64,000 nt of DNA from Parachlamydiales bacterium (GCA_963705295.1 OY970065.1:320001-384000), one strand, 5' to 3'. Shown: positions 20,802-48,046, counted from the stretch's first letter. The notes: generated from the sequence alone by a model not told the origin. Program-made: numbers and translations.

Positions 20802-20899
20802 CTGAAGTCCTTCAGTAAGCATAAATGGACTCGAGTATAGAGCTCTTAACAATTAGAAGCAAATTGCAAAAAATAGCCTGCCGTCCCTACTCTTTGGGG

Positions 20900-31089: not shown

Positions 31090-31269
31090 CCCAACAGGCA
31101 AAAAGGTGACAATCTGCTTGCTGCACTCCTGTCAGATCGATCCTCCTCCTCGGCCTAGCCTCCGCCCTAACCTATCGATGGGGTCCTCGTCGGTCGGACC
31201 GCTAACGCTTCGATCTGACAGGAGTTCGCTGACGCATTTTGTCACCTTTTTGCCCGTCGGGCTAATAAT
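31082..31269. repeat. 188-bp palindromic element (MITE/REP-like or structured RNA)
   Basis: Outer IR 31082-31112 / 31239-31269 (28/31); inner perfect 16-bp IR 31125-31140 / 31210-31225. Confidence 0.85.
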
Positions 31270-32953
31270 TCTTTCCCTTACATCCTTTGCAAGGTTTTGA
31301 GAGTTTCTCTGTTGAGGATGGGTCAGGGAAAGGAGCTTTTCCATTGAGACTAAAGACATAGAGTCCTCCTTCCGTAATTCCTGAAGTAAAAGGAATTCTC
31401 AGATCGGTAAATCCTACAGGAACAAAGACCTTATTTTCTGCAACAGTGATATCCCCGTAGAGAATAGGAGAAATTAAAGGAAGGTTTGTGGGTGGAAGAT
31501 TTGGAAACATCGATTCACAAACGGGAGGTGGGGCAAAACAGAGACTATATGTAGGCGGGAATTGAAAACTGAAGAGTTCGTCTCCATTTTTAGCACTAAA
31601 AGCTAAAAACCTTCCATCTGCGGTACCTGTGTAAAGAACCCCATTCGATTCTGTGATCGATCCGAGCACATTTCCAGAAAAATCTTTTCTCCACTTCACT
31701 TTTCCATTCGATGCATTCAAAGCAAAAATACTCGTCATGCACCGATTGATCTGAATATCGGCCCAATAATTCAACAAAGTTGGATCGGATGATCGGTCAT
31801 ATGCATAGTCAAATCCCACATTTAAAAGAGGTTTTTTAGTCCAGCTTAAAATGGTATAAACTGTCCCATTCACAAAGGCTGCGCTAGGATTGCCCAATAA
31901 GGTCGGAAATCCGCTACGAATCTTTTTTTGCCATATGACCTCACCCGTCGCGCGATCAAATGTTGTATAAATTCCTTTTTTACTATTGACACCAACAACA
32001 TCACGTCCTGTTCCATCTTTTTTTGTGTTAAAAAGATTAGGAGAGGAAAGGACATCTAAATCTTGATAGCCTCGAGAGATCTTTGTTCCTGTTTGATCTG
32101 CATAGACCGAGTCATTTTTTGTAAATTGGTAGCTCCATACTTTTTTGCCGGTCCTATAATCGATGGCAATGAGAGAATCGCAATCGGGATTTGCAGGAGG
32201 GAAAGTCGCATCGGACATTCCAATATAAAGCAATTTCAGTTTTGTATCGTAAGCGGGAGTTGATTCAATAGTTCCTCCTCCACCGATCTCTGGTATAAAT
32301 TGCCAGACCGGCTCGCCGGTTTCCTTGTCAAAAGCATTAAGGGAAGCGATCAGTTTTGGATCGGGATTGAGATCGCCTTCAGATGTTGTAGCAGTAGGCA
32401 CGATGACGAGGCCATCGATGAACGATGTTGCGGCAAACATACTATTGCCAGTATTTTTATTGCCCACGCGACTTTTCCAAACAATACTTCCATCTGATTT
32501 ATTCAATTTAAAAAGCATATCAAAAGGGGCTCCTTTAGAAGGGAAAAAAGAACCCGTCGCATAGAGAAAATCTCCATCTATTGCCGATTCTGTAAAAAAG
32601 GCTCCTTCTCCGGGAGTAAATTGCCAAAGTAAAGTCCCATCAGAAACCTTAGATGCTTGTAGACTGAAAGCAAAGTTGTTGTAATAGACAACGCCTTGAT
32701 CCACGATCGGATTTTTCAACGAAGGGAATCTAAAGGGTCCCACGGGAGAATCTGGGATATCGGGCAGAGACACCCAATCGAGTTTCAAATCTTTGACATT
32801 ATTAGGTCCAATTTTATTCTTCCCAGGATTGCTATTGGTGTTGCAATGATCATGGCTGGCCGATTTCCACTGAGGATTATTGGCAGTTTGATCACCCGCA
32901 CTGTAAACGGTTCCAACAAGCAAGCACATCATAATCGATTTGATTACAGACAT
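31262..32953 (-). CDS. Secreted PQQ-binding-like beta-propeller repeat protein
   Basis: Signal peptide; repeated Trp-docking motifs DGTLLWQF, DGSIVWK, TGEPVWQF, TGKKVWSY, TGEVIWQ, NGKVKWR, NGDELFSF. Confidence 0.88.
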   Translation of the reverse strand: MSVIKSIMMCLLVGTVYSAGDQTANNPQWKSASHDHCNTNSNPGKNKIGPNNVKDLKLDWVSLPDIPDSPVGPFRFPSLKNPIVDQGVVYYNNFAFSLQASKVSDGTLLWQFTPGEGAFFTESAIDGDFLYATGSFFPSKGAPFDMLFKLNKSDGSIVWKSRVGNKNTGNSMFAATSFIDGLVIVPTATTSEGDLNPDPKLIASLNAFDKETGEPVWQFIPEIGGGGTIESTPAYDTKLKLLYIGMSDATFPPANPDCDSLIAIDYRTGKKVWSYQFTKNDSVYADQTGTKISRGYQDLDVLSSPNLFNTKKDGTGRDVVGVNSKKGIYTTFDRATGEVIWQKKIRSGFPTLLGNPSAAFVNGTVYTILSWTKKPLLNVGFDYAYDRSSDPTLLNYWADIQINRCMTSIFALNASNGKVKWRKDFSGNVLGSITESNGVLYTGTADGRFLAFSAKNGDELFSFQFPPTYSLCFAPPPVCESMFPNLPPTNLPLISPILYGDITVAENKVFVPVGFTDLRIPFTSGITEGGLYVFSLNGKAPFPDPSSTEKLSKPCKGCKGKNY

Positions 32954-33025
32954 GAAATTCTCCTTTCTTTAAATATACATAAAAAAAAATTGTGTTAACA
33001 TCCAAAATTTTACAAGAGAGAAGAT

Positions 33026-34432
33026 ATGTTGCAATTTTTACGGGTCTTTTTTGCAGTGTTATTGGTATCTGTCGGTTTCGGTGCAGAAACGAGGAAGGTG
33101 CTTAAAGCGGAGTTATCATCCGGTTTTGCAAGTCCCGCCATCGATGGAATTTTGGGTTATCTTTCTGAAGAAGGGGATCAAGCTTATTTATTTTATTCTA
33201 ATTTTTATGACACTTTTAAGCCGACTCAACCGGTGGCTCAACTTTTGAATAATGTCGATGGGGAGTTGGTTGTTTCTAAAACATTGCCGTTTGATCCTAA
33301 ATATCCAGCTTCCTGGTTTGGTTGGGCTTCACAGGATTTTTCTCGATTCTCTGTTTTACAAACTGCCATCTGTAAACCTTATCCTGCCTGTGCACCATCG
33401 ATTGAGAATATGAGGATCCAAATTCTCGATAACGATTTTAACGTCGTAGGAAGTCGGATCATCAAAAACTCTAATTTTTCTGTTGTCATGGGAGGTAGCT
33501 TTAGTGAAGACAACCATTATGTCTCTTTCGCTTATGCACTGGCGGCTCCCCCACCGAGTAAGAGTTTCAATTCTGTCATCTATGTTTTCGATGCAACCGA
33601 TCCGAAACTCCCTACTGTTGCGGGACCGATCACAATTTCGGGTTACGACCCTCTTGTCAGAGGCCCTACCTTATTTACTTTGACAGATTCGAGCGGAACG
33701 GAAAATCTCTATTTATCCTTTGCAAATAGTCAAATAAACTTAAAGGCGGCCAATAAATTTTCTCTAGACGATGACCTAAGACCTCCTTATTTTAGTGAAG
33801 TTTATAAAGTGGATGTAAAAAAAGGGACAATTACTCTGCTGGATAAAAAACCTCTTCCAAAATTTGCAGAAAATACTCTTTTTGTTCGTAAAAGTGGAAA
33901 AGAAGCCCTTGTCTGTCACGGAGGACAATGTAGTATCAATCCGAAACAACCTCAGATTTATACAACCATCTTACCTGCAAATATCTGTGATTTACCCGGC
34001 AATTGCGAGGCGATTCGGGTTTTCCGTTTTGATGGAGAAAAACTGAAGCTCTTTTTCAAACAATCGAGTAATTGTTGTAGTTTTGTTGTTGCCTATCCTC
34101 CCGATAATGGGTGTACTTATTTTATTGGACAGTCGGTCGAAACTTATAGTATTCCAGCGAAACCAAAGACCCAAACCCCTTTCCAGCAAGAGTTCTGGTC
34201 ATTGCATCGCCTCGTGAGAGGAAACTCCGGTCTAAAAACAGTCCCAGAAGCAGGCCCTTTTCAAGATTTAAAAAATGCCATTACAACTTTTAGTCAGAAT
34301 GGAAAGTGGATGTTAAGAACGGGGGTTTATGGATACGTCAAAGGTAAGCCCAATAAAGACTCGATTGGAATAAAAAATGTTTTGCTTTTCAAGATTTCTA
34401 AGGAAGAAGTGACTCCTTTTTGTAATAAATAA
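33026..34432 (+). CDS. Secreted Cys-rich hypothetical protein, tandem paralogue 1 (most divergent)
   Basis: 468 aa, signal peptide, ten Cys shared with copies 2-4. Confidence 0.9.
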   Translation: MLQFLRVFFAVLLVSVGFGAETRKVLKAELSSGFASPAIDGILGYLSEEGDQAYLFYSNFYDTFKPTQPVAQLLNNVDGELVVSKTLPFDPKYPASWFGWASQDFSRFSVLQTAICKPYPACAPSIENMRIQILDNDFNVVGSRIIKNSNFSVVMGGSFSEDNHYVSFAYALAAPPPSKSFNSVIYVFDATDPKLPTVAGPITISGYDPLVRGPTLFTLTDSSGTENLYLSFANSQINLKAANKFSLDDDLRPPYFSEVYKVDVKKGTITLLDKKPLPKFAENTLFVRKSGKEALVCHGGQCSINPKQPQIYTTILPANICDLPGNCEAIRVFRFDGEKLKLFFKQSSNCCSFVVAYPPDNGCTYFIGQSVETYSIPAKPKTQTPFQQEFWSLHRLVRGNSGLKTVPEAGPFQDLKNAITTFSQNGKWMLRTGVYGYVKGKPNKDSIGIKNVLLFKISKEEVTPFCNK

Positions 34433-34499
34433 ATTCAGATGGGACGATACATTGAAAAAATTTTACTATATCTGATACTCTTAAAAAAGGAGATAACTT

Positions 34500-35903
34500 A
34501 TGTTGAATGTTTTCCGTGTATTCATTGCAATCTTGGCAGTTTCTACGAGCTTCTGTGCTGAATCAAAACCAAGGAAGGTGCTTAAAGCGGAGCTGTCTTC
34601 GGGGTTTGCGACACCATCCATCGATGGAACTTTAGGATATCTTTCTCCAAATGGCGATCAAGCTTATTTAGTTTTTGCAAATCTTTACGACACACTTGAA
34701 CCTACCCAACCGATGGCCCAACTTTTTAATAATGTGAACGGTGAGTTGGTCGTTGCTCAAACTCTGCCGTTTGATCCGAAATATCCAGCAACGTGGTGGG
34801 GTTGGGCATCTCAAGATTTTTCTAGATTCTCTGTGCTACAGTCCGGAATCTGTAGCCCAACTCCTTGCGTTATTTCCAATATGCGTATCCAAATTCTGGA
34901 TCAGAATTTTAACGTTGTCGGGAGTCGAGTCTTCAAGAATCCTAATTTTGTGGTTGTTATGGGAGGGAGCTTTAGTGAAGACAACCATTATGTGGCATTC
35001 TCTTATGCTATTCCAGCCCCTAGTCCCAGTAAAAGTTTCAATTCAAAAATATTCATTCTGGATGCAACCGATCCTAAACTTCCCACCGTGGCTGGACCCA
35101 TCACCATCTCGGGGTTTGATCCCCATGTCAAAGGACCCACGTTATTTACACTGACCGATTGTAATGGAAAGGAAAATCTCTATTTAACATTCACAAGCAG
35201 CCAAATAGACTTCAATCCGACCGTTACATTTCTCTCGGATAATGTTATGAGGCCTCCTTATTTTAGTGAAGTCTATGCGGTGAATGTAAAAAAAGGGACC
35301 ATCACCCTAGTCACTAAAAAACCGCTTCCGAAATTTGCTGAAAATTCCCTTCTTGTTCTTAAAAATAAAAAAGAAGCCCTTATTTGTCATGGAGGTCAGT
35401 GTAGTGTCAATCCTAAACAACCGAGTATTTATACGACACTTTTACCAGCCAATATTTGTGATTTGCCCGGTGATTGTCAGGCGATACGAGTCTTTCGTTT
35501 TGATGGGGAAAAACTAAAGCTGTTTTTCAAGCAGACAACGAACTGTTGTAGTTTGTTGGTTCCCTATCCTCCGCACAATGGATGTTCTTATTTTAATGCC
35601 TCATCTGTAGAAATTTATAGAGTTCCAGGCAAGCCAAAAACTCAAGCGCCTTTACCCCAAGAGTTTTGGTCTCTTTTTAAGCTTATACGAGGCAAGGCTG
35701 GTCTTGAACTTATCCCAGAAGCTGGACCTTTCCAAGACATGGCATTTACTGATACAACATTCAGTCAGGATGGGAAATGGATGCTCCGTACAGGATCTTA
35801 TGGATATGTCAATGATAATCCTGATAAGGATTCCATTGGTATAAAAAATGTTTTGCTTTTCAAGATTTCATCCCAAAAAGTAACTCCTTTTTGTGATAAA
35901 TAA
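34500..35903 (+). CDS. Secreted Cys-rich hypothetical protein, tandem paralogue 2
   Basis: 467 aa, AAGGAG RBS, signal peptide. Confidence 0.9.
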   Translation: MLNVFRVFIAILAVSTSFCAESKPRKVLKAELSSGFATPSIDGTLGYLSPNGDQAYLVFANLYDTLEPTQPMAQLFNNVNGELVVAQTLPFDPKYPATWWGWASQDFSRFSVLQSGICSPTPCVISNMRIQILDQNFNVVGSRVFKNPNFVVVMGGSFSEDNHYVAFSYAIPAPSPSKSFNSKIFILDATDPKLPTVAGPITISGFDPHVKGPTLFTLTDCNGKENLYLTFTSSQIDFNPTVTFLSDNVMRPPYFSEVYAVNVKKGTITLVTKKPLPKFAENSLLVLKNKKEALICHGGQCSVNPKQPSIYTTLLPANICDLPGDCQAIRVFRFDGEKLKLFFKQTTNCCSLLVPYPPHNGCSYFNASSVEIYRVPGKPKTQAPLPQEFWSLFKLIRGKAGLELIPEAGPFQDMAFTDTTFSQDGKWMLRTGSYGYVNDNPDKDSIGIKNVLLFKISSQKVTPFCDK

Positions 35904-35916
35904 AAGGAGATAACTT

Positions 35917-37329
35917 ATGTTGAATTTTATACGTTTGTTCATTGCGATTTTAGCAGTTTCTACGAGCTTCTGTGCTGAATCGAAACCCAGGAAGGTGCTT
36001 AAAGCGGAGTTGTCTTCGGGGTTTGCGACACCATCCATCGATGGAACTTTAGGATATCTTTCTCCAAATGGCGATCAAGCTTATTTATTTTTTGCAAATT
36101 TTTACAACACACTTGAACCTACCCAACCGGCTGCTCAACTTTTTAATAATGTGAACGGTGAACTGGTCGTTGCTCAAACTCTGCCGTTCGATCCGAAATA
36201 TCCAGCGACGTGGTATGGTTGGGCATCTCAAGATTTTTCTAGATTCTCTGTCTTAGAATCTGGAATCTGCACCCCTTTCCCCAAATGTGCTCCTACTATT
36301 GCCAATATGCGTATCCGTATTCTTGATCAGAGTTTTAACGTTGTTGGAAGTCGTGTGTTCAGCAATCCAAATTTTGATATTGTTATGGGAGGAAGTTTTA
36401 GTGAAGACAACCATTATGTGGCATTCTCTTATGCTCTTCCCGCCCCTAGCCCCAGTACGAGTTTCAATTCAAAAATCTTCATTCTGGATGCAACCGATCC
36501 TAAACTTCCTACCGTGGCTGGACCTATCACGATCTCGGGGTATGATAACTTTGGCACTGGACCCACGCTATTTACACTGATCGATTGTAATGGAAAGGAA
36601 AATCTCTTTTTTACATTCGCTAGTAGCCAAATAGACACAGAAGCGACACTTAACTTTTCCACAGATGATATTTTGAGGCCTCCTTATTTTAGTGAAGTCT
36701 ATGCGGTGAATGTAAAAAAAGGGACCATCACACTCGTCGATAAAAAACCGCTTCCGAAATTTGCACAAAATGTCGTTCTTGTTCTTAAAAATAAAAAAGA
36801 AGCTCTTGTTTGTCATGGAGGGCAATGTAGTGTTAATCCAAAACAACCGAACATTTATACGACACTTTTACCAGCCAATATTTGTGATTTGCCGGGCGAT
36901 TGTCAGGCGATACGAGCCTTTCGTTTTGATGGCGAAAAACTAAAGCTGTTTTTCAAGCAGACAACGAGCTGTTGTAGTTCGTTGGTGCCCTATCCTCCGC
37001 ACAATGGATGTTCTTATTTTAATGCCTCATCTGTAGAAAATTATGCAGTTCCAGGCAAGCCAAGAACCCAAGAACCTGCTCCACAAGAGTTTTGGTCTCT
37101 CTATAAACTTGTACGAGGCAAAGCTGGTCTCGAACTGATCCCGGAAGCGGGACCTTTCCAAGACATGAAATATACTAATACCATATTCAGTTATGATGGG
37201 AAATGGATGCTCCGTACAGGAGCATATGGATATGTCAAAGGAGATCCTGATAAGGATTCCATTGGTATAAAAAATGTTTTGCTTTTCAAGATTTCATCTC
37301 ATAAAGTGACTCCTTTTTGCAATAAATAA
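35917..37329 (+). CDS. Secreted Cys-rich hypothetical protein, tandem paralogue 3
   Basis: 470 aa; upstream AAAAGGAGATAACTTATGTTGAAT is identical to that of copy 2. Confidence 0.9.
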   Translation: MLNFIRLFIAILAVSTSFCAESKPRKVLKAELSSGFATPSIDGTLGYLSPNGDQAYLFFANFYNTLEPTQPAAQLFNNVNGELVVAQTLPFDPKYPATWYGWASQDFSRFSVLESGICTPFPKCAPTIANMRIRILDQSFNVVGSRVFSNPNFDIVMGGSFSEDNHYVAFSYALPAPSPSTSFNSKIFILDATDPKLPTVAGPITISGYDNFGTGPTLFTLIDCNGKENLFFTFASSQIDTEATLNFSTDDILRPPYFSEVYAVNVKKGTITLVDKKPLPKFAQNVVLVLKNKKEALVCHGGQCSVNPKQPNIYTTLLPANICDLPGDCQAIRAFRFDGEKLKLFFKQTTSCCSSLVPYPPHNGCSYFNASSVENYAVPGKPRTQEPAPQEFWSLYKLVRGKAGLELIPEAGPFQDMKYTNTIFSYDGKWMLRTGAYGYVKGDPDKDSIGIKNVLLFKISSHKVTPFCNK

Positions 37330-37376
37330 TGCTGGAATTGTGAAATTCTGTTACAAATAAAAAAAGGAGTTAACAG

Positions 37377-38789
37377 ATGTTGAATTTTATACGTTTGTTT
37401 ATTGCAATTTTGGCTGTTTCTACGAGCTTCTGTGCTGAATCAAAACCCAGGAAGGTGCTTAAAGCGGAGCTGTCTTCGGGGTTTGCGACACCTTCGATCG
37501 ATGGATTTGTAGGATATCTTTCTCCAAATGGCGATCAAGCGTATTTATTTTTTCAAAATTTTTACAGCACAATTGAACCTACCCAACCGGCGGCTCAACT
37601 TTTCAATAATGTGAACGGTGAACTGGTCGTTGCTCAGACGTTACCCTTTGATCTGAAATATCCGGCGACGTGGATTGGTTGGGCATCACAAGATTTTTCT
37701 AGATTCTCTGTGCTGCAGTCCGGAATCTGTAGCCCAACTCCTTGCATTGTGGCTAATATGCGTATTCAAATTCTGGATCAGAATTTTAACGTTGTCGGAA
37801 GTCGAGTCTTCAAAAATCCTAATTTTGAGGTTATTATGGGAGGGAGCTTTAGCGAAGACAACCATTATGTGGCTTTCTCTTATGCTCTTCCCGCCCCTAG
37901 TCCCAGTAAAAGTTTCAATTCAAAAATATTCATTCTGGATGCAACCGATCCTAAACTTCCTACCGTGGCGGGACCGATCACGATCTCGGGGTATGATCCC
38001 CTTGTCAGAGGACCCACGTTATTTACACTGACCGATTCTAACGGAAAGGAAAATCTCTATTTAACATTCACAAGCAGCCAAATAAACTTCAATCCGTCTT
38101 TTCCATCCATCGCATTATTCTCTGATAATGTTATGAGGCCTCCTTATTTTAGTGAAGTCTATGCGGTGAATGTAAAAAAAGGGACCATCACCCTAGTCAC
38201 TAAAAAACCCCTTCCAAAATTTGCAGAAAATACACTTCTTGTTCTTAAGAATAAAAAAGAAGCCCTTATTTGTCATGGAGGTCAGTGTAGTGTCAATCCT
38301 AAACAGCCGCAGATTTATACGACACTTAGACCAGCTAATATTTGTGATTTGCCCGGTGATTGTCAGGCCATACGAGTCTTTCGTTTTGATGGGGAAAAAC
38401 TAAAGCTATTTTTCAAGCAGACAACGAACTGTTGTAGTTTGTTGGTTCCCTATCCTCCACACAATGGATGTTCTTATTTTAATGCCTCATCTGTAGAAGA
38501 TTATTTTGTTCCAGGCAAGCCAAAAACTCAAGCGCCTGCTCCACAAGAGTTTTGGTCTCTCTTTAAACTCGTGCGAGGCAAGGCTGGTCTTGAACTTATC
38601 CCAGAAGCTGGACCTTTCCAAGATACGAAATATACTGATACCACGTTCAGTCAGGATGGGAAATGGATGCTTCGTCTAGGATCTTATGGATATGTCAAAG
38701 ATGATCCTGAGCTGGATTCCATTGGTATAAAAAATGTTTTACTTTTCAAGATTTCATCTCATGAAGTGACTCCTTTTTGTAATAAATAA
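37377..38789 (+). CDS. Secreted Cys-rich hypothetical protein, tandem paralogue 4
   Basis: 470 aa, AAGGAG RBS, signal peptide. Confidence 0.9.
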   Translation: MLNFIRLFIAILAVSTSFCAESKPRKVLKAELSSGFATPSIDGFVGYLSPNGDQAYLFFQNFYSTIEPTQPAAQLFNNVNGELVVAQTLPFDLKYPATWIGWASQDFSRFSVLQSGICSPTPCIVANMRIQILDQNFNVVGSRVFKNPNFEVIMGGSFSEDNHYVAFSYALPAPSPSKSFNSKIFILDATDPKLPTVAGPITISGYDPLVRGPTLFTLTDSNGKENLYLTFTSSQINFNPSFPSIALFSDNVMRPPYFSEVYAVNVKKGTITLVTKKPLPKFAENTLLVLKNKKEALICHGGQCSVNPKQPQIYTTLRPANICDLPGDCQAIRVFRFDGEKLKLFFKQTTNCCSLLVPYPPHNGCSYFNASSVEDYFVPGKPKTQAPAPQEFWSLFKLVRGKAGLELIPEAGPFQDTKYTDTTFSQDGKWMLRLGSYGYVKDDPELDSIGIKNVLLFKISSHEVTPFCNK

Positions 38790-38814
38790 AGGGTGGATTT
38801 CATAAACTGGATGG

Positions 38815-39522
38815 ATGAAAACCATCATTCTAGCCGGGGGCCTCGGAACCCGGCTTTCTGAAATGACGACCACAATTCCTAAGCCTATGGTTGAGATTGG
38901 GGGCAAGCCCATTCTTTGCCACATCATGGACATCTACGCCTCCTATGGGTTTTGTGAATTTGTGGTTGCGCTCGGATATAAAGCTGAAATCGTAAAGGAA
39001 TATTTTTCAAAGAACAGGGTGGAGTGGAAAATCGATTTGGTCGATACCGGAGTGGAAACCCAGACGGGAGGGCGGATCCGGCGGCTGAAGGAGTGGATCG
39101 AGAATGAGACCTTTCTGTTGACTTATGGAGACGGGGTGGGGAATGTTGATATTGAACAATTGGTTGCATTTCATAAAGAGCATGGAAAGCTGGCAACGGT
39201 GACAGCGGTTCATCCGCCGGCAAGATTTGGTGGGTTGGTGCTCGAGGGTAATCGAGTGGCAGCTTTTTCTGAGAAGAATCAAGCGATGGAGGGATGGATC
39301 AATGGGGGGTTTTTTGTTTTAGAACCGGCGGTTTTGGATTTGATTGCAGGTGATGCGACGGTTTGGGAGAGAGAGCCTTTGGAGCAGCTGGCTTTACAAG
39401 GGGAGCTGATGGCCTATTATCATGAAGGGTTTTGGCAGCCGATGGATACGGTGCGTGAGGTCCGACTCTTACAGTCTCTATGGGAATCGGGACAAGCACC
39501 TTGGAGGACGGTTTTGGTATGA
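38815..39522 (+). CDS. rfbF: Glucose-1-phosphate cytidylyltransferase
   Basis: LAGGLGTRLSE, PKPMVEIGG, VDTG..TQTGGR, TYGDGV, WINGGFF, GFWQPMDT. Confidence 0.92.
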   Translation: MKTIILAGGLGTRLSEMTTTIPKPMVEIGGKPILCHIMDIYASYGFCEFVVALGYKAEIVKEYFSKNRVEWKIDLVDTGVETQTGGRIRRLKEWIENETFLLTYGDGVGNVDIEQLVAFHKEHGKLATVTAVHPPARFGGLVLEGNRVAAFSEKNQAMEGWINGGFFVLEPAVLDLIAGDATVWEREPLEQLALQGELMAYYHEGFWQPMDTVREVRLLQSLWESGQAPWRTVLV

Positions 39523-40505
39523 CATGGAAGGATAAGAATGTTTTGGTGACAGGTGCTACAGGGCTGGTGGGATACTGGCTCTCGAAAAGGCTCATGGAAG
39601 AAGGGGCCCGTGTTGTTGCTTTTGTCCGAGATTTCGACCCTCAGAGCGAATTTTTTAGGTCCGAGCTTTACAAAAGCATGACGATTGTTCAGGGAGAATT
39701 GGAAAATTATTCTGCAATAGAAAGGGCGATCAATGAACATGAAATTAACACCGTCTTTCATCTAGGCGCTCAAACGATTGTAAGTACGGCGCTCAGAAGT
39801 CCGCTGCCGACGTTTGAATCGAATATCCGAGGGACATATCATTTGTTGGAAGCGTGTCGAAGACATTCTTCATTAGTCAAAAGAATTGTTATAGCATCGA
39901 GTGACAAAGCGTACGGAACGAGCGACATCTTGCCTTACACGGAAGAGATGACTTTAGGGGGTAAACATCCGTACGATGTTTCAAAATCGTGCGCTGACCT
40001 GATTGCTTTCTCGTATTTTCATACGTATGGACTTCCACTCGCGATAGCTCGGTGTGGAAATATTTATGGTGGAGGAGATCTTCACTTCAGTCGATTGATA
40101 CCAGGGACGATTCGGTCGCTTTATTTGAATGAGCCCCCTGTCATCCGGAGTGATGGGTTTTTTACCCGGGATTATATCTATATCCAAGATGTCGTAGAAG
40201 CGTACATTGCGGTCGCCAGAAATGTCCATCGAGACAATGTTCAAGGTCAGGCTTTTAATTTTGGTCCGAATAATCCGACCAGTGTCATGGAGGTTGTCAA
40301 TCTTTTGAAGCAGCTCATGCACCGGCACGACATTGAGCCGCATATCTTAAACTCTTCTCAAACAGAAATCCGTGATCAATATCTCAGCTCCGAAAAGGCC
40401 CTTTTGACTTTGGGATGGGAGCCACACTTTACTCTCGAAGAAGGTCTTTTAGAGACAATCCGGTGGTATGAGAAATATTTCGCCCTGTCGACTGTCCATG
40501 CCTAA
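39519..40505 (+). CDS. NDP-sugar 4,6-dehydratase (CDP-glucose 4,6-dehydratase-like)
   Basis: TGATGLVG, ASSDKAYG, PYDVSKS, RCGNIYGGGD; coupled to rfbF. Confidence 0.85.
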   Translation: MTWKDKNVLVTGATGLVGYWLSKRLMEEGARVVAFVRDFDPQSEFFRSELYKSMTIVQGELENYSAIERAINEHEINTVFHLGAQTIVSTALRSPLPTFESNIRGTYHLLEACRRHSSLVKRIVIASSDKAYGTSDILPYTEEMTLGGKHPYDVSKSCADLIAFSYFHTYGLPLAIARCGNIYGGGDLHFSRLIPGTIRSLYLNEPPVIRSDGFFTRDYIYIQDVVEAYIAVARNVHRDNVQGQAFNFGPNNPTSVMEVVNLLKQLMHRHDIEPHILNSSQTEIRDQYLSSEKALLTLGWEPHFTLEEGLLETIRWYEKYFALSTVHA

Positions 40506-41679
40506 CTGTCGATGTTGCTTTCAGCCTCTCAAGACAACGTTTTGTGATTTGGGAAATGCCCCTCTTTCCAATAGTTATCTCAAGAAGAGCGATCAAAAAG
40601 AAGCCTATTTTCCCCTCCATGCCTATGTGTGTGAAACGTGCTTTCTTGTCCAAATTGAGCAGTTTGAAAGGCCAAGTAGCATTTTTTCCGAATATCTATA
40701 TTTTTCATCGTATTCCTCATCATGGCTTGCGCATGCCAAAGAATACGCAGAGAAAATGATCGATCGTTTTTCACCGTCCTATGTGGTTGAGATCGCGAGC
40801 AATGACGGATATCTTCTCCAATATTTTAAAGATCGGGATGTTTTGGGTATTGAACCGGCCCACAATGTGGCGGCTAAGGCGATTGAAAAGGGCATTCCTA
40901 CTCTGACAGAATTTTTTGGCCGAGAGATGGCAAAAAAACTCGCGCGAAAAGCCGATCTATTGATTGCTAATAATGTGCTGGCGCATATTCCCGACTTGCA
41001 CGATTTTGTAGCAGGGCTTTCCATTCTGCTCGCTCCCTCCGGCATTCTAACTATAGAATTTCCCCATCTTTTGCAGCTCATGGAGCAGAATCAATTCGAT
41101 ACGATTTATCACGAACATTTTTCATATTTTTCATTGACAACGGCTCACCAAATCTTGGAAAGGTACGGGTTGGAAATCTTCGATGTCGAGGAACTTTCCA
41201 CCCATGGAGGATCTCTCCGTATCTATGTGCAACACCCAAAAGGTGTGATTCATGACAGTGTCTATGAGATTTTAGAAAAAGAAAAAAAATTAACGGAAAT
41301 AACTACCTACCATTCTTTTTCAAAACAGGTCGAGCAGGTGAAAGATTCCCTCCTGGAATTTCTCCATGAGATCAAAAAATCGGGAAAGAGTATTGCGGCC
41401 TATGGAGCTCCCGCTAAGGGAAATACCCTTCTCAATTTTTGCAAGATTTCGACCGATTTGATCCCGTTCACGGTCGATATCAGCCCGCATAAACAAGGCT
41501 GTTTTTTACCAGGAAGTCGGCTTCCGATTTATCCACCCTCTAAGATTGACGAAGTTCGTCCCGATTATCTCGTGATTCTTCCTTGGAATTTAAAAACGGA
41601 AATCATGAAACAGATGGACTCTATTCGGTCCTGGGGAGGGAAATTTGTGATCCCTATTCCTCAACTAGAAATTGTTTGA
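40498..41679 (+). CDS. SAM-dependent NDP-hexose C-methyltransferase family protein
   Basis: Zn ligands CRCC and CETC, EIASNDGYLL, FDTIYHEHFSY, THGGSLR, YGAPAKGNTLLN, ILPWNL. Confidence 0.88.
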   Translation: MPNCRCCFQPLKTTFCDLGNAPLSNSYLKKSDQKEAYFPLHAYVCETCFLVQIEQFERPSSIFSEYLYFSSYSSSWLAHAKEYAEKMIDRFSPSYVVEIASNDGYLLQYFKDRDVLGIEPAHNVAAKAIEKGIPTLTEFFGREMAKKLARKADLLIANNVLAHIPDLHDFVAGLSILLAPSGILTIEFPHLLQLMEQNQFDTIYHEHFSYFSLTTAHQILERYGLEIFDVEELSTHGGSLRIYVQHPKGVIHDSVYEILEKEKKLTEITTYHSFSKQVEQVKDSLLEFLHEIKKSGKSIAAYGAPAKGNTLLNFCKISTDLIPFTVDISPHKQGCFLPGSRLPIYPPSKIDEVRPDYLVILPWNLKTEIMKQMDSIRSWGGKFVIPIPQLEIV

Positions 41680-42438
41680 CCACTTCTCTAATATCTTCGT
41701 TCACTTCTTCGATGTTTAAAACAAATCCGATCCATCTGCAACAAGCATTATGGAGACGACGGCATTTATCTTGAATGGTTCCAGGGGCATAAAACCTTTG
41801 TTTATATTCTGCAGAAACAGGATGTGCAGGAGGTTTCCATTCCCCGTCTTGGTAGACGAACCCCTCTTTCATCCATTTGTAAAAATGGGAAAAAGAAAAT
41901 ACGATATACCAGGGATAACAATCCAAGCTGGTTAAAGCAACTGTTGGAGAGCGACCCATACCATTTTTTCAAGTTGCTGAAGGAAGGTTGGAAGATCGTC
42001 CAAAATCTTAAAAACGAGACAACTGATGATTTGCATGGTCTCAAAAAGGGCTGGTTGAATTTCTTCGTCTGTCCATAAAGTTTCATTCGATAGGGTGCTT
42101 TCAATTTGGGTGATATAGGTGATGTAACGAGCCACCAAACGGCCGATTTCTGCATTGGGTTGAGCGATTCTATAATTCCCATCATCCGACTTTCTGAAAA
42201 CATAGGGAGGAATGGTATTGTCAATTAAAGAAGTTGCAAATTGGCGCGCTTCTCGAATTAACTCTACTGAATTCCCAGGGCAACGAGGGCGACGGCATAA
42301 TCGATAAAGAACCCCTGCTGCGCAAGCTATTAAAATGGGCCAAACGATATTAAAAATTCTTTTGGCGAGGGTTTGATGGTGACACAGAGGATTCCAGAAG
42401 AAGTGTTGAACGACTGAATGAGAGCAGGGAGTGACCAT
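41654..42438 (-). pseudogene. Hypothetical gene split by a 1-nt frameshift at an A6 run
   Basis: ORFs 41932-42438 and 41654-41959 fuse if one A is added to the run at 41964-41969. Confidence 0.6.
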
Positions 42439-42441
42439 GCT

Positions 42442-43356
42442 CTATAGTTTAAGCCTCTTTCTGTAATTTGAAAATCTGAAAAAATTTTTGGTGATTTTAT
42501 AGAAGGAGAGAAGGGGGAGAAGAAAAGGGAACCCCTGACAGAGCAAAGCTAACATTTTGTAGAAAAATGAGGGAGCGAGGGGGAGAGCTTTTGCGGTGTC
42601 ACCGGCGAGGAGGAATCGGACGAAAAAAGAACGGCGGCATAGGTTTAAGTCGTGTTCAAGTTCGGATTTCAGAGGAAATCTGGCTAAGAGTTTTTTGAAA
42701 GCGGCTTCGGAATGGAGCAAATCTTGTGAGTTGGAAAAAGAGTCTGGATGATGGAGGAAGAGGCCACACGGTTTTTTTGAAATGACGTAGGGGAATTTTG
42801 AGGCAATTTGTAAGAGATAATCGCAGTCCCAAAAGAGAGGGTTATCGGAGTCAATAGAGACATGTTTTAAGATGTCGGAGTGAAATAATACCGTCGTTGG
42901 AACAGGGTATTGTCCGACTAGAGGGGACATTCCTTCAAATTTTCCTTCCCTTTCCCATTCATCCAAAGGAATGCGGACGATTTTTTTATCGGGAGTGGCG
43001 ATGATGGTGGATCCTGCGACAAACCCCGCTTCGGGGTATTTCTGGAACTGTCCGATCGCTGTTTCGAAAAAGTTTGGAAAGAGGATGTCGTCGTCGGAGA
43101 GGAAGGAGAAAAAGGGTGTTTTGATCAGAGATAGAGAAAATTGGTAGTTTCCGATCATGCCGATGTTGGTCTCGTGGCAGTGGTAATGGAGGCGGCTGTC
43201 TTGGAAGGATGCAACGACACCTGGTGTTTCATCACCCGATGCATTGTCGCAAACCCAGATTTCGAAGTTGGTGTAGGTTTGTGACAAAACGCTTCCGATC
43301 GCTTTTTTCAAAAGCGCAGGTCGTCTGAATGTGGGTATTAACGTGGTGATTTTCAA
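42442..43356 (-). CDS. GT2 glycosyltransferase
   Basis: IPTFRRP, VCDNASGD, FLSDDD; TTG start overlaps the wzx stop. Confidence 0.92.
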   Translation of the reverse strand: MKITTLIPTFRRPALLKKAIGSVLSQTYTNFEIWVCDNASGDETPGVVASFQDSRLHYHCHETNIGMIGNYQFSLSLIKTPFFSFLSDDDILFPNFFETAIGQFQKYPEAGFVAGSTIIATPDKKIVRIPLDEWEREGKFEGMSPLVGQYPVPTTVLFHSDILKHVSIDSDNPLFWDCDYLLQIASKFPYVISKKPCGLFLHHPDSFSNSQDLLHSEAAFKKLLARFPLKSELEHDLNLCRRSFFVRFLLAGDTAKALPLAPSFFYKMLALLCQGFPFLLPLLSFYKITKNFFRFSNYRKRLKL

Positions 43357-44801
43357 ATAATAACCTCTTTTTTCCGCAGAAGAGATGTCCTCCAAAAACA
43401 GGCCAAAAGTCCGACTAGAAAAATAAAACCGAGGAGGAAAAAGGTTTGCACCCGATTGAGATCAGATGGAAAGAACCACCGTGCCAATAAAAAAATACAA
43501 AGGGAGCTCAATGCTGGAAGAAGATTATCTTGGATGTACCACCTTTTCATCTCGGATTTTAAGATTTTCCGGTGCATGAGAGGAATGGTCACTGCAAAAT
43601 ATCCGACATTTAGAACAATCATGATCCCGGCCGCTCCGTAGGCTCCCCAGGTTTTAACAGCCCAAATCCAGGGAAGCGTTAAAACTCCAATGGCGCAGAG
43701 ATTTTGAATCAGGGTGAGCTTGGTCCACCCATGGGCTAATTGGAGGCCGTAAGGAATACTGAGAAGATTGTTGAGGGCTGTTCCTAAGACGAGCAAAGGA
43801 AGTAGATGAGGAAGATTTTGGATTCCTAAAACCGATAAAATTTCCGGAGTGAAGAAAATGAGCGAGCACGCAATGGGTATGATGAAACAGGAAACAAGTT
43901 GAGAGCTAAAATGGTAGAGATCGCTCAATCTCTGCGGATTGGAAAGTTCGTGAGAAAAACGGGGGAAAAAAGTCGCAAAGATAGGACCTGTTATATGGTA
44001 CAGTCCATTTGCTAATGAACTTGCAAAGGCATAATGCCCAAATGTTTCAAGGGGTAGGAATCGACTCAAGAAAACTTTATCGAGATTATGGAGAATCAGC
44101 ACTGTGAGAGAAATCCCTGTCATTCCTGCAGAAAACTTGGAAACCTTTTTCAAAGCAGCAAATTGAAATTTCGGTTTATTTTCCCGAGGCAAACTCTTCC
44201 ATAAAAGAAAGGCAGCAGCTAGAGATTGAGACAAATTGACAAAGGCATGCCAAATAAAAAAAGCTTCTAACGTATTGGATATCCAGGCTAAGACCATCAC
44301 CGATCCAAGCGCCCTCAAGGCGGCACAAAAAGAGACGAGATAATTGAGCGGAACCTGTTTTTCGAGTCCCATCAGAGCACCTGAATAAAATCCAAAAGGC
44401 CAAAGCGCCGCAAGGGTGATTCCCATGCACATCAGTCCATTTTGAAGATGGGAGAGGGTGAGTTTTTCAGGATGGAACCAGTGGGATGCTAGCCAAGGAG
44501 AAATCGAGATACAAACCAGCCCGATCACCCCTGCCATAGCCCAGTAGATCACTTCAACCGTCCGAACAAAGTTGTGACTATTTTCCTTTTTAGATGCCAT
44601 GAGAGCCATCTCGCGATTGGTCGTTGTTGCAAGACCGAGATCGAGTAAAATGGTTAGAACACCGGAAAGTGTGACATAAAATCCAACAAGTCCGTACGCC
44701 TCCAATCCTAAAAAACGGATGTAGAGAGGAAGAAAGGGAATTGAAAATGCGAAATACAAAAACTTTGCAGTAAAGTTAGAAATTAAATTTCTTTTAATCA
44801 T
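43353..44801 (-). CDS. wzx: Oligosaccharide flippase (Wzx-like)
   Basis: LGLEAYGL, LDLGL, LDKVFLS...FGHY; many TM segments. Confidence 0.85.
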   Translation of the reverse strand: MIKRNLISNFTAKFLYFAFSIPFLPLYIRFLGLEAYGLVGFYVTLSGVLTILLDLGLATTTNREMALMASKKENSHNFVRTVEVIYWAMAGVIGLVCISISPWLASHWFHPEKLTLSHLQNGLMCMGITLAALWPFGFYSGALMGLEKQVPLNYLVSFCAALRALGSVMVLAWISNTLEAFFIWHAFVNLSQSLAAAFLLWKSLPRENKPKFQFAALKKVSKFSAGMTGISLTVLILHNLDKVFLSRFLPLETFGHYAFASSLANGLYHITGPIFATFFPRFSHELSNPQRLSDLYHFSSQLVSCFIIPIACSLIFFTPEILSVLGIQNLPHLLPLLVLGTALNNLLSIPYGLQLAHGWTKLTLIQNLCAIGVLTLPWIWAVKTWGAYGAAGIMIVLNVGYFAVTIPLMHRKILKSEMKRWYIQDNLLPALSSLCIFLLARWFFPSDLNRVQTFFLLGFIFLVGLLACFWRTSLLRKKEVII

Positions 44802-44839
44802 GAATTTGATACTATAAACTGAATTATACTAAAATTTCT

Positions 44840-45361
44840 ATGAAATTTAATGAGACTACAATTTCTGGTGTTTATCTGATTGATCTTGAATTACTCGAAG
44901 ATGAGAGGGGTCATTTTGCAAGAACGTATTGCAAGAATGAATTTTTGCACCACGGCTTAAACCCCCATCTTGAGCAATGCAACCTGTCTTATAATCACAA
45001 AAAAGGGACTTTGCGCGGGATGCATTATCAAGAAGAACCTTATGCAGAAGCAAAGTTAATCCGGTGTGTTCGAGGGGAGATTTTTGATGTTGTCATAGAT
45101 TTGCGGCCTCAGTCTCAGACATTTGAACACTGGTGGAGTGTGGAATTGTCGTCCTCGCAGCTATTGTACATTCCTGAAGGGTGCGCTCACGGTTTTCAGA
45201 CTCTTCAAGATGGGAGTGAAGTGTTGTATCAAATGTCTTCTCCTTTTATTCCAGACGCTGCCAAAGGAATCCGGTGGGACGATCCACATTTTAAAATTGC
45301 TTGGCCGATCGAAGAAAAGATCGTCTCTAAAAAAGATCAAAATTATCCAGCCTATTTATGA
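44840..45361 (+). CDS. rfbC: NDP-4-keto-6-deoxyhexose 3,5-epimerase (RmlC family)
   Basis: DERGHF, GTLRGMHYQ, DVVIDLR, IPEGCAHGFQTL. Confidence 0.93.
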   Translation: MKFNETTISGVYLIDLELLEDERGHFARTYCKNEFLHHGLNPHLEQCNLSYNHKKGTLRGMHYQEEPYAEAKLIRCVRGEIFDVVIDLRPQSQTFEHWWSVELSSSQLLYIPEGCAHGFQTLQDGSEVLYQMSSPFIPDAAKGIRWDDPHFKIAWPIEEKIVSKKDQNYPAYL

Positions 45362-46212
45362 AAATCGTCGTTACGGGTGCTACAGGATTTATAGGAAGAT
45401 TTTGTTTGCCTCTTCTCGTCGAAAAAGGATTTGAAGTCCATGGCATCACTTCAAAGCGGCCTGTTGATATGCCGGGAATCAAAATGCATTCTCTGAATCT
45501 CCTAGAGTCTCTTGGCTTGGATGATTTTCTCCAAAAACTCCGTCCAACCCATTTACTCCATCTAGCTTGGATTACAGAGCCTGCCGTATTTTGGAATTCC
45601 CCTGATAATCACCGGTGGGTTGAAGCGAGTTTATGCCTTCTCCAGAAGTTTAAAGATTGTGGCGGAATCCGTGCTGTTGTTGCAGGAACATGCGCCGATC
45701 AAAACCCAACCACCCTGTATGGTATTTCCAAAAAAACGGTGTTCAATTTGCTGCAGCGGATTGATCTGAGCTCGGCTTGGGGGCGCATCTTCCATCTCTA
45801 CGGCCCTTACGAAAACTCGAGAAGATTTGTCCCTTCGGTCATTCTTTCTTTGCTCAAAGGAAAAGAAACATTGTGCACCCACGGAAATCAAATCCGAGAT
45901 TTTTCATTTGTCGGAGATGTTGCAAAAGTTCTCGTCGATCTCGTGATGAATTCTGTCCAAGGACCCATCGACATCGGTTCTGCAGCACCCACTTCGATTA
46001 AAAATCTTTGTTTAAAAATTGGTGAGAAAATCGGCAATCCTGAGAAAATTGTCTTTGGTGCGATTCCAACCTCTCCCGATGAACCAGCTATTTTAGTCCC
46101 TGATGTAAAACCGGTTTACAATTTTAAAACGTTAAATGAAGGCTTAGAAGAGACCATCCAATGGTGGAAATTACAACAATCATCCCAACCTATCGAAGGC
46201 CTGAAAAGCTGA
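45358..46212 (+). CDS. NAD-dependent epimerase / 4-reductase (SDR)
   Basis: TGATGFIG, LHLAW, YGISK, GRIFHLYGP. Confidence 0.88.
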   Translation: MKIVVTGATGFIGRFCLPLLVEKGFEVHGITSKRPVDMPGIKMHSLNLLESLGLDDFLQKLRPTHLLHLAWITEPAVFWNSPDNHRWVEASLCLLQKFKDCGGIRAVVAGTCADQNPTTLYGISKKTVFNLLQRIDLSSAWGRIFHLYGPYENSRRFVPSVILSLLKGKETLCTHGNQIRDFSFVGDVAKVLVDLVMNSVQGPIDIGSAAPTSIKNLCLKIGEKIGNPEKIVFGAIPTSPDEPAILVPDVKPVYNFKTLNEGLEETIQWWKLQQSSQPIEGLKS

Positions 46213-47120
46213 AAAAGGCGATCCAAACTGTTTTGGATCAGACATATCCCCACTTTAAAGTCTGTGTCTACGACAATGGTTCGGGAGATGAGACTGCTGC
46301 TGTGGTTTCGGCATTTGCCGATCGTAGGATCCACTATTTTTGTCATCCCAGGAACATCGATGCGGCTCCTAATTTTGAATATGGAATGCGGGAGGTTCAG
46401 ACCCCCTTTTTCTCTTTTCTGTCAGACGACGATCTCTTGCTGCCCGATTTTTATGCCAACGCTCTCCGAGGTTTTGAAGAATTTCCCCAGGCAGCTTTTT
46501 CTGCGGGTCGTGTGATCGACATGGCAGAGAATGGGTCCGTGATTACCATCTCGAAAAAAATTGAGAAGGAAAGAGAACTGAGAATGCCACTGGATGGTTT
46601 GTTTGAATTGATTGCGGATTACATCAATTGGACAGGGATTGTTTTCAGAAAAGAAGTGATCGATTTTTTAGACGAAGAGGTCAAACCGTTCGATGTCGAT
46701 TTTGTCCTCCGGTGTGCTGCACGGTTCCCGTACGTCGTTTCTCAGAAAAAGCATGCCATTTTCATGCATCATTCAACCTCGTATTCTGGAAATTGCGGTT
46801 TGAAGCTCGTATGGCCGAGTTGGTTGAAGATTTTAGAGAATTTGAAGAAAGTCGTTCCTCCTGAAAATCATGCACAAGTAGAAATATTGATGCGCACGCG
46901 CATGGGAGAGCTGTTAACTTCTATCGGAACTCAATCGATTCTGAAGCAAAGAGAAACGGAAGTGATGGCGATTGCCGATCTTCTCGATGTCCCTTTAAAA
47001 AGTTTCAAAGCGAAGGCGATGAAAAAAGTAATTTGTTTCTATAAAAAATATCCATCTGTCCGAAGTCTATTATCGCGTCTGATAAAAACGGCGTACGCTC
47101 TCTACAGGAAATTCCGATGA
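46161..47120 (+). CDS. GT2 glycosyltransferase, paralogue of 42442-43356
   Basis: IPTYRRP, YDNGSGD, TPFFSFLSDDD. Confidence 0.92.
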   Translation: MVEITTIIPTYRRPEKLKKAIQTVLDQTYPHFKVCVYDNGSGDETAAVVSAFADRRIHYFCHPRNIDAAPNFEYGMREVQTPFFSFLSDDDLLLPDFYANALRGFEEFPQAAFSAGRVIDMAENGSVITISKKIEKERELRMPLDGLFELIADYINWTGIVFRKEVIDFLDEEVKPFDVDFVLRCAARFPYVVSQKKHAIFMHHSTSYSGNCGLKLVWPSWLKILENLKKVVPPENHAQVEILMRTRMGELLTSIGTQSILKQRETEVMAIADLLDVPLKSFKAKAMKKVICFYKKYPSVRSLLSRLIKTAYALYRKFR

Positions 47121-48046
47121 TCTGTATCGATACACGGATGGCTTTTCATACAGGCATTGGCACGTATATCCGGAATATCATTCCGAAGCTTCCGTTTAAA
47201 AAGGTTTTAATTGCCGCGGAGAAATGGACAGACGATCCGTGTATCTTGACATCGGCGCCCATATATTCGATGGAAGAACAGCTTAAACTACCCTTTTTGA
47301 TACCGGAGTGTGATCTTTTTTGGTCGCCCCATTATAATATTCCTCTCGCACCAATCCGGGCCAAAAAACGACTCACAACGATCCATGATACGTGCCACCT
47401 CACCCATCCTCAAAATTGGCATAAAAAGCTGTATGCGAAGACGATGCTATGTAAAGCGGCTCGACTTTCCGACCATATTTTGACAAATTCAGAGTTTTCA
47501 AAAAGTGAAATCATCCGTCATACACAGGCGCCTGAGGAAAAAATCACGGTTGCCCATCTTGGCGTCGATTCTTCTCGATTTTTTCCAACGGATGAGGAGA
47601 AGGAGAAGTTTTTCCTCTATGTCGGCAGCCGGGCTCCTCATAAAAACATCGATCGGCTCCTTGAAGCATGGGAAAAAATTTCCCCCGAATGGGAACTCAA
47701 AATGAGCCCTTTTTCCGATGAAGAATTACCTTCTCTCTATCAGAAGGCTTATGCCCTCATCCATCCTTCTTTTTATGAAGGATTTGGACTGACCCCTTTA
47801 GAAGCGATGAGTTCAGGATGTCCCACCGTGGTTTCAAATCGTGCAAGTCTTCCGGAGGTGTGCGGCCCGGCAAGTCTCTATTTTGATCCTTATTCTGTGG
47901 ACGAAATAGCCTCTGCAATACGTCAACTCATCGAAAATCAAACTCTCCATATTGAATTAAAAGAAAAAGGTTTAGAAAGAAGTCGACGTTTTTCCTGGGA
48001 TAAAACGGTGCAAAAACATATCGAAATTTTGGAGAACCTTCTTTGA
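47117..48046 (+). CDS. GT4 glycosyltransferase
   Basis: GIGTY, TIHD, HKN, PSFYEGFGLTPLEAM. Confidence 0.93.
   Translation: MICIDTRMAFHTGIGTYIRNIIPKLPFKKVLIAAEKWTDDPCILTSAPIYSMEEQLKLPFLIPECDLFWSPHYNIPLAPIRAKKRLTTIHDTCHLTHPQNWHKKLYAKTMLCKAARLSDHILTNSEFSKSEIIRHTQAPEEKITVAHLGVDSSRFFPTDEEKEKFFLYVGSRAPHKNIDRLLEAWEKISPEWELKMSPFSDEELPSLYQKAYALIHPSFYEGFGLTPLEAMSSGCPTVVSNRASLPEVCGPASLYFDPYSVDEIASAIRQLIENQTLHIELKEKGLERSRRFSWDKTVQKHIEILENLL

Follow-up and report, generated by a model that had tools for sequence, protein, structure and literature searches.

Four tandem paralogues of a Parachlamydiales bacterium, predicted to be exported seven-bladed beta-propellers, differ mainly in one class of loops

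We describe an array of four tandem genes, paralogues A to D, in a 64,000-nucleotide stretch of the genome of a Parachlamydiales bacterium (GCA_963705295.1 OY970065.1:320001-384000). This whole stretch is referred to as the window, and positions are counted from its first letter unless another sequence is named. The array occupies positions 33026 to 38789 and shows the following layout, in which blades, strands and loops are those of the structural model discussed further below:

33026-34432, plus strand: paralogue A, 468 amino acids, the oldest copy (synonymous divergence, dS, of about 1.2-1.35 to B, C and D), with 10 cysteines and a putative signal peptide free of cysteine
34433-34499, plus strand: A-B spacer of 67 bp, with an AAGGAG-type ribosome-binding site
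34500-35903, plus strand: paralogue B, 467 amino acids, sister of D, with a short CX4C B-C loop in blade 2 and an extra cysteine in the A-B loop of blade 4
35904-35916, plus strand: B-C spacer of 13 bp, with an AAGGAG-type ribosome-binding site spaced as in the A-B spacer
35917-37329, plus strand: paralogue C, 470 amino acids, the copy used for the structure model, a predicted seven-bladed beta-propeller
37330-37376, plus strand: C-D spacer of 47 bp, with an AAGGAG-type ribosome-binding site spaced as in the A-B spacer
37377-38789, plus strand: paralogue D, 470 amino acids, sister of B, with a three-residue insertion in the B-C loop of blade 4

All four open reading frames are intact, tandem and co-oriented, and their products align end to end, with protein identities of 73-74% between A and the remaining three and of 86-90% among B, C and D. 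Since the same ribosome-binding site recurs with the same spacing before B, C and D, the unit that was duplicated contained the region of translation start as well. Terminator-like hairpins were not detected in 32600-39200, where shuffled sequence yields a mean of 5.8, and Tandem Repeats Finder returned no tandem repeats in 32000-40000. At its N-terminus each protein has a basic residue followed by a run of about 12 hydrophobic ones and by a small-x-small site before a glutamate, a pattern that looks like a Sec signal peptide; in the model of C this segment is a detached, low-confidence helix (residues 3-16). A first-pass annotation of the window had called four intact paralogues with signal peptides at these coordinates, and that description of the genes holds, with products of 468, 467, 470 and 470 amino acids and N-termini that are signal-like as judged from their sequence. 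Its word 'system' is less apt: A to D are a protein family rather than a multi-part system, and they do not represent a new kind of molecular system.

None of the four proteins matches a Pfam or NCBIfam family at E <= 1, be it the WD40 (PF00400), the PD40/TolB-like (PF07676) or the lactonase-type (PF10282)/YncE propellers, and a sequence-profile search of the PDB gave nothing below E 0.22; the family, which the first-pass annotation did not recognise, indeed corresponds to no curated entry of Pfam or NCBIfam. AlphaFold2, run on paralogue C with a 21-row family alignment, produced a model with a predicted local distance difference test score (pLDDT) of 82.5 and a predicted template modelling score (pTM) of 0.85, in which 28 strands form seven four-stranded blades, with blade 7 completed by an N-terminal strand (residues 25-36). 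When compared by VIA-align against 48,161 chains, the top 50 rows considered have Z scores of 24-26.5 and align 283-316 residues at 2.6-3.6 Å in nearly all cases, the exceptions being ranks 45 and 49 at 7.3 and 5.3 Å. These matches are WD40-type seven-bladed propellers together with YncE of E. coli, they cover model residues 25-463, and a Foldseek search of the PDB is concordant. About 140 of the 445 residues lie outside the common aligned core, in long loops. By this model A to D are seven-bladed beta-propellers, and the earlier guess of a beta-propeller was correct. In a Pfam scan of 58 relatives (E <= 0.01), seven showed weak matches to repeat or low-complexity families (WD40, PD40, Beta-prop_EML_2 and Cwf_Cwc_15), mostly sub-threshold: WD40 accounts for one such match (17.5 bits against a cut-off of 27), and four distant relatives have single-repeat PD40 matches of 17-23 bits around the 20.9-bit cut-off, which show blade-turn likeness only.

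This fold is also found in enzymes of the lactonase/hydrolase seven-bladed type, and the four copies might accordingly act on related substrates. Foldseek does list the putative 6-phosphogluconolactonase-like proteins 3scy, 3fgb and 1ri6 among its many matches (E of about 2-4e-8), but these are no better than the matches to WD40 scaffolds. At the above thresholds no Pfam family is found in A to D and no enzyme family in the 58 relatives. The residues invariant across the family are L, F, P, I, G, S and N, with no polar residue suggesting a catalytic site and no family-wide invariant acidic residue, histidine or cysteine. Moreover, the face that usually holds the active site of propeller enzymes is the one that varies among A to D, as detailed next. 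An enzymatic role hence appears very unlikely.

The strands of a blade are likewise lettered A to D, and loops are named after the strands that they join. The D-A and B-C loops, which by the WD40 convention lie on the 'top' side, comprise 154 residues, the A-B and C-D loops 63 and the strands 223; the loops were assigned to faces from the DSSP strand order and the principle that loops following one another in a beta-meander lie on opposite faces, i.e. by topology and not from coordinates. Among B, C and D, 84 of the 465 ungapped columns are variable, and these are clustered, with a dispersion index of 1.7 in 10-column bins that none of 5000 shuffles reached. By class, variable positions make up 52/154 of the D-A/B-C loops, 3/63 of the A-B/C-D loops and 28/223 of the strands; in Fisher tests on these counts the D-A/B-C loops differ from the other loops with p = 2e-6 and from loops and strands together with p = 2e-8. 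When all four copies are considered, three or more different residues are seen at 30/154, 1/63 and 7/223 positions, respectively. Six of the seven columns that differ in all four copies are in D-A/B-C loops, while the seventh is in the first turn of strand A2. The top loops are not uniformly variable, because the 30-residue top loop of blade 5, with its four cysteines, is nearly constant. A comparable trend extends to 21 members of the family, where the D-A/B-C loops are the most variable class (mean entropy 1.84 versus 1.51 bits) and hold 95 of the 142 inserted residues. The variable motifs listed in the first-pass annotation were all recovered in the alignment as written, and the segments concerned fall without exception in the D-A/B-C class. 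As to its suggested check, whether a predicted structure places the variable residues on one face, these residues belong overwhelmingly to the loop class that topology assigns to a single face; its term 'hypervariable', however, overstates what four old copies can show.

A second feature of the proteins is their cysteine content, which totals 10 in A, 11 in D and 12 in both B and C. Nine cysteine columns are strictly invariant among the four; the tenth, the second cysteine of a CX5-6C loop, is equivalent in all copies but shifted by the aligner at a three-residue indel, so that an earlier count of ten invariant cysteines stands strictly for nine and for the last only by equivalence. The extra cysteines are C19, which lies in the putative signal peptide of every copy but A, and C224, which B and C share, and the mature proteins of B and C have an odd number (11). 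Three of five putative disulfides would be short rings within the top loops, namely the CX4-6C of blade 2 and the CX4C and CX5C of the 30-residue loop of blade 5. In the 21-row family alignment C323 and C329 are jointly present or jointly absent in all 21 aligned relatives, the blade-2 CX4-6C pair is restricted to A to D, and the most widely kept cysteines are C304 and the vicinal C352/C353. As the conserved cysteines form short CX4-6C rings and co-varying pairs, they are suggestive of intramolecular staples, and such staples in an exported protein would account for the pattern better than cross-linking would.

Cross-linking would be expected if A to D were structural envelope proteins, that is, abundant parts of the periplasm or outer envelope joined by intermolecular disulfides in the infectious stage, the role of OmcB, OmcA and the cysteine-rich OmpA family in Chlamydia and Waddlia. 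The predicted Sec signals and the 10-12 cysteines of A to D are in keeping with this, and cysteine-rich envelope families are documented in relatives (PMC2878342, PMC4184618, PMC6490308). The odd count in mature B and C further means that one cysteine could be free for cross-linking. Against this, the conserved cysteines sit in short rings and co-varying pairs of the kind expected of intramolecular staples, six of the other paralogues of the genome are limited to 2-3 cysteines, save that one has more in a doubtful N-terminal extension, and a purely structural role leaves the one-face variation unexplained. We therefore consider a structural envelope role unlikely, and return to it with the host background below.

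Divergence was estimated by the Nei-Gojobori method, pairwise among A to D, and by structural class for the pairs of B, C and D. The whole-gene ratio of nonsynonymous to synonymous divergence (dN/dS) is 0.13-0.30, with dS of 0.22-0.37 among B, C and D and of 1.2-1.35 to A. By class, dN/dS is 0.13-0.20 in strands, 0.03-0.22 in A-B/C-D loops and 0.36-0.77 in D-A/B-C loops, and in all three pairs the ratio of nonsynonymous to synonymous changes is higher in the D-A/B-C loops than in the scaffold (p 5e-6 to 0.015). The segments singled out in the first-pass annotation reach 0.63-1.8, a selection test that is circular because they were picked for being variable. The diversifying selection proposed there is not borne out: the proportion of nonsynonymous differences (pN) does not significantly exceed that of synonymous ones (pS) in any set, and the whole-gene ratios are low. 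Informative sites favour AC|BD by 31 against 16 and 11 for the alternatives, and the duplication order read from the sequences is ((B,D),C),A. A Sawyer-type run test found a single weak conversion candidate, between B and C at codons 37-60 (p 0.01, with no correction made for the six pairs). There is no reverse transcriptase near the array, the only RVT_1 matches in the genome being broken and about 460 kb away:

814460-815079 of the genome, plus strand: the only RVT_1 match, split and with an in-frame TGA

With respect to a diversity-generating retroelement, no adjacent reverse transcriptase is present; a template repeat was not searched for. Given the low dN/dS, the old dS, the single weak conversion candidate, the lack of tandem repeats and the distant, broken reverse transcriptase, A to D represent old duplications in which the scaffold is constrained and one face is relaxed or mildly diversifying; the array is not one under active diversification.

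These data likewise bear on whether the array is an antigenic-variation or arms-race repertoire shaped by positive selection, switching or shuffling against host recognition. One-face variation would be expected of such a repertoire, but the dN/dS of 1.8 between B and D that would speak for it is not significant (p 0.24) and comes from segments chosen as variable. The candidate conversion between B and C (codons 37-60, p 0.01 if the six pairs are not corrected for) is set against informative sites dominated by one tree (31 versus 16 and 11). The copies are old (dS 0.22-1.35), each has its own ribosome-binding site, silent cassettes are absent, there are no tandem repeats, and the sole reverse transcriptase match of the genome is broken and about 460 kb off. 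Such a repertoire is the most improbable of the explanations considered here.

The genome encodes 14 members of the family. In a FastTree phylogeny of 154 rows, from which proteins below 330 amino acids and duplicates of this genome's proteins were dropped, they form four clades: A to D with E and F; G and H; I, J, K and M; and L and N. A to D are monophyletic with a support of 100, and E and F are a tandem pair at 136-139 kb of the genome. The I/J/K/M and L/N clades are cysteine-poor, six paralogues with 2-3 cysteines each, apart from one with additional cysteines in a doubtful N-terminal extension. A word-indexed search of 5.8 billion proteins recovered 14 proteins, and a HMMER profile search of 1.84 billion representatives recovered 223 at E <= 1e-3 (78 of them at E <= 1e-30), these 223 being clusters at 50% identity in public data. 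Among sequenced relatives the family is rare and patchily distributed. It occurs in 2 of 61 close-relative genomes, namely this one and one of the same genus, in 2 of 300 scored genomes of the order and in 2 of 401 of the phylum; these counts are of samples in which several genomes are incomplete. The host genus, which is not Waddlia, has at least 18 species genomes, and the taxonomic family at least 19 genera. The homologue and copy-number check envisaged in the first-pass annotation hence gives 14 copies in this genome and 2/401 sampled genomes of the phylum with the family. In the same-genus genome the one copy comes immediately after a barrel-only gene resembling inverse autotransporters, possibly a barrel whose passenger is encoded separately:

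L009:273-1214 of the same-genus genome, plus strand: inverse-autotransporter beta-domain open reading frame, 314 amino acids, beta-domain only (E 7e-12), 250 bp upstream of the propeller homologue

A peptide-pattern search of GTDB species genomes returned none, IMG/VR gave no related DNA, and metagenome contigs yielded one distant locus only (L024, see below). Literature searches at the level of listings and abstracts found no paper on a chlamydial cysteine-rich beta-propeller family or on a propeller common to Klosneuvirus and chlamydiae. A to D belong to a new sequence family with a well-known fold and way of working.

The above observations lead to the proposal, to which we assign a probability of roughly 0.55, that A to D are binding propellers, exported and stapled by disulfides, and that the face for the ligand has diverged from copy to copy. 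Each of the tandem duplicates would encode a Sec-exported seven-bladed propeller of about 445 residues after removal of the signal peptide, in which the 28 strands and the short loops of the A-B and C-D type make up a constant scaffold. One mouth of the central channel would be ringed by the long loops of the D-A and B-C type, which would bear three small disulfide rings and form the ligand-binding face. Following duplication, purifying selection would have acted on the scaffold, while in the loops of the binding face selection would have been relaxed or weakly diversifying. The bacterium would thereby export four related binders of somewhat different specificities to the periplasm, the envelope or the inclusion. 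The gene structure, the paralogy, the fold, the placement of the variation and the selection regime come from the analysis itself; export, disulfide pairing, binding function, location and ligand are inferred. For the function, the fold and the loop pattern are the grounds, and the earlier designation 'receptor, adhesin or lectin' has the same basis.

Several points weigh against this proposal. The face assignment derives from strand order and the alternation rule only and not from model coordinates. pN is never significantly above pS, with one-sided Fisher p of 0.24-0.87 even for the segments highlighted in the first-pass annotation, and the one-face pattern could reflect relaxed constraint alone, given that in propellers generally long loops are free to change. 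A signal peptide is missing from many metagenomic relatives, which begin at the first strand, and the fold is thus not tied to export. Finally, the 14 paralogues do not share a conserved gene neighbourhood.

The genome is a single contig of 2.13 Mb with 43.8% GC, for which no sequencing run containing this DNA, and none of RNA, was listed. The array has the following neighbours in the window:

20825-23026, plus strand: YjbH-type exopolysaccharide outer-membrane protein, 733 amino acids
28896-30698, plus strand: ankyrin-repeat protein, 600 amino acids, with a long non-ankyrin N-terminal half
31262-32953, minus strand: secreted PQQ-like propeller, 563 amino acids, with a signal-like N-terminus, PQQ/PQQ_2 repeats and a Cys/Lys-rich C-terminal tail, divergent from the array
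38815-51314, plus and minus strands: O-antigen-like glycan cluster of about 12.5 kb, beginning 25 bp after D and co-oriented with it there
51282-53777, minus strand: topoisomerase I with a C-terminal SWIB/MDM2 domain

A second, presumably exported propeller therefore adjoins the array, the 563-residue PQQ protein, whose scores against the equivalogs for PQQ-dehydrogenase and BamB fall well short of the cut-offs. The fusion of TopA to SWIB is a chlamydial hallmark, and similarity to TLC nucleotide transporters is found in six matches at five loci of the genome, three of them full-length. In favour of a structural envelope role it can be said that these features mark the host as a chlamydia-like obligate intracellular bacterium, that the OmcB-type domain (PF03504, Chlam_OMP6) was found neither in A to D nor in the whole genome, and that the only MOMP-like match (PF01308) covers 39 residues at 309139-309255 of the genome, away from the array. 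However, the genome search for OmcB was run without a positive control and does not establish its absence.

The glycan cluster encodes two nucleotidyltransferases, a 4,6-dehydratase, a C-methyltransferase, RmlC-like and RmlD-like proteins, two GT2 and two GT4 glycosyltransferases, a Wzx-type flippase and a Wzy_C protein. Its proximity raises the alternative that A to D are lectins for sugars of the bacterium's own surface or of the host, such as the polysaccharide of this cluster: the array ends 25 bp before the co-oriented cluster with no terminator-like site in between. Some of the other paralogues have a related setting. Genes for BNR/Asp-box proteins of about 620 amino acids, members of a second paralogue family, precede I and K, and G is near a BNR_2 gene; three paralogues outside the array thus lie beside BNR/Asp-box or BNR_2 proteins. 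The neighbourhoods of the others differ: M is near a sterol reductase and an inverse-autotransporter barrel, and E and F follow a porin and a thioredoxin fusion. The features in question, with their approximate positions in the genome in brackets, are:

L030:2471-9839 (about 637-645 kb), minus strand: three BNR/Asp-box family proteins around K, of about 620-666 amino acids with a single BNR/Asp-box match each
L028:7527-9386 (about 285-287 kb), minus strand: BNR/Asp-box family protein directly upstream of I, with a single BNR/Asp-box match
L025:639-1754 (about 130-133 kb), minus strand: Legionella_OMP-type porin, 3-5 kb upstream of E and F
L025:1783-3129 (about 130-133 kb), plus strand: thioredoxin-reductase-thioredoxin fusion, 3-5 kb upstream of E and F

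Overall the paralogues have no conserved partner and share only a loose glycan theme. Propeller lectins for fucose, GlcNAc or sialic acid carry a sugar-site motif repeated within or between their blades, but no such motif is visible across blades in the alignment of A to D, and no lectin family was matched by sequence in Pfam or in the PDB profile search. A lectin function in this sense is quite unlikely.

The nearest structural relatives found are uncharacterised proteins of the giant viruses Klosneuvirus KNV1 and Catovirus CTV1 (BFVD A0A1V0SKH3, A0A1V0SLH3, A0A1V0S9M7 and A0A1V0S9F0). In a Foldseek search of BFVD these four score E 1e-29 to 9e-21 with the next match at 1e-11, their template modelling (TM) scores are 0.65-0.72 by query at 17-21% identity, and the score by target is 0.84 for a 393-residue protein. 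Since these matches stand far above all others, the family is, as far as predicted structures go, shared with giant viruses of protists, with transfer possible in either direction. Metagenomic relatives of about 380-400 amino acids match the family profile with E values down to 1e-56; they differ from A to D in lacking a signal peptide, and several have Cys/Lys-rich or Asn-rich heads. One relative, P0124, is encoded on the contig L024, which has 33% GC and also encodes a 327-residue Pol X, a eukaryotic-type protein kinase, an ankyrin protein and ORFans. On the same giant-virus-like contig, 1.3 kb upstream of P0124, we noted a further repetitive gene:

L024:5911-6681, plus strand: 256-residue protein of about 14 tandem ten-residue units of the CNPCPHGKLK type

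A more speculative scenario, which we regard as having a low probability, is that Klosneuvirinae and chlamydia-like symbionts living in the same hosts have exchanged the family as a module for host interaction, and that the bacterial version gained a signal peptide and stapled loops and expanded to 14 copies, the array serving as adhesins or as binders of host receptors or glycans. If this were true, the variable face would set which host cells or compartments the bacterium can use.

For environmental chlamydiae without the classical envelope proteins of Chlamydia, little is known about which proteins are secreted or make up the envelope. The present analysis yields a sizeable unannotated family with a confident fold, a defined candidate binding face and an unexpected giant-virus link, which is of relevance to chlamydial surface biology and makes a case for studying gene exchange inside protist hosts.

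Among known chlamydial families, OmcA and OmcB and the 11-member OmpA family of Waddlia chondrophila are described as lineage-specific, Sec-exported and cysteine-rich, with some members clustered (PMC2878342). A to D resemble them as lineage-specific, probably Sec-exported, cysteine-rich paralogues of a chlamydia-like bacterium. They differ in that the Waddlia OmpA proteins are predicted beta-barrel porins with 13-19 cysteines in CxC/CC clusters, whereas A to D are predicted propellers with 10-12, and in that OmcB is built on OmcB-type repeats, whereas A to D have no sequence match to such families. Membership in the Waddlia OmpA family was rejected as a classification, those proteins being barrel porins with 13-19 cysteines (PMC2878342, PMC4184618). 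Assignment to the MOMP/OmpA porins (PF01308) was likewise rejected, as the model is a propeller and not a barrel and A to D have no PF01308 match.

Among propellers of known structure, the bacterial seven-bladed YncE (PDB 3vgz, 3vh0), a periplasmic protein, is similar to the model with Z 25.4 over 308 residues at 3.2 Å. It differs in having 10% identity, about 320 residues, short loops and no disulfide-stapled loops, and in not being an expanded family; one of its PDB entries is titled as a DNA complex. The eukaryotic WD40 propellers WDR5 (8q1n), RACK1 (5xyi) and Sec12 (4h5i) share the fold and its closure by an N-terminal strand at Z 25.8-26.3, but they are cytosolic scaffolds without the disulfides and long loops of A to D. 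WD40 propellers bind partners mainly by the face of the D-A and B-C loops, and this face used by WD40 partners is the one that varies among A to D.

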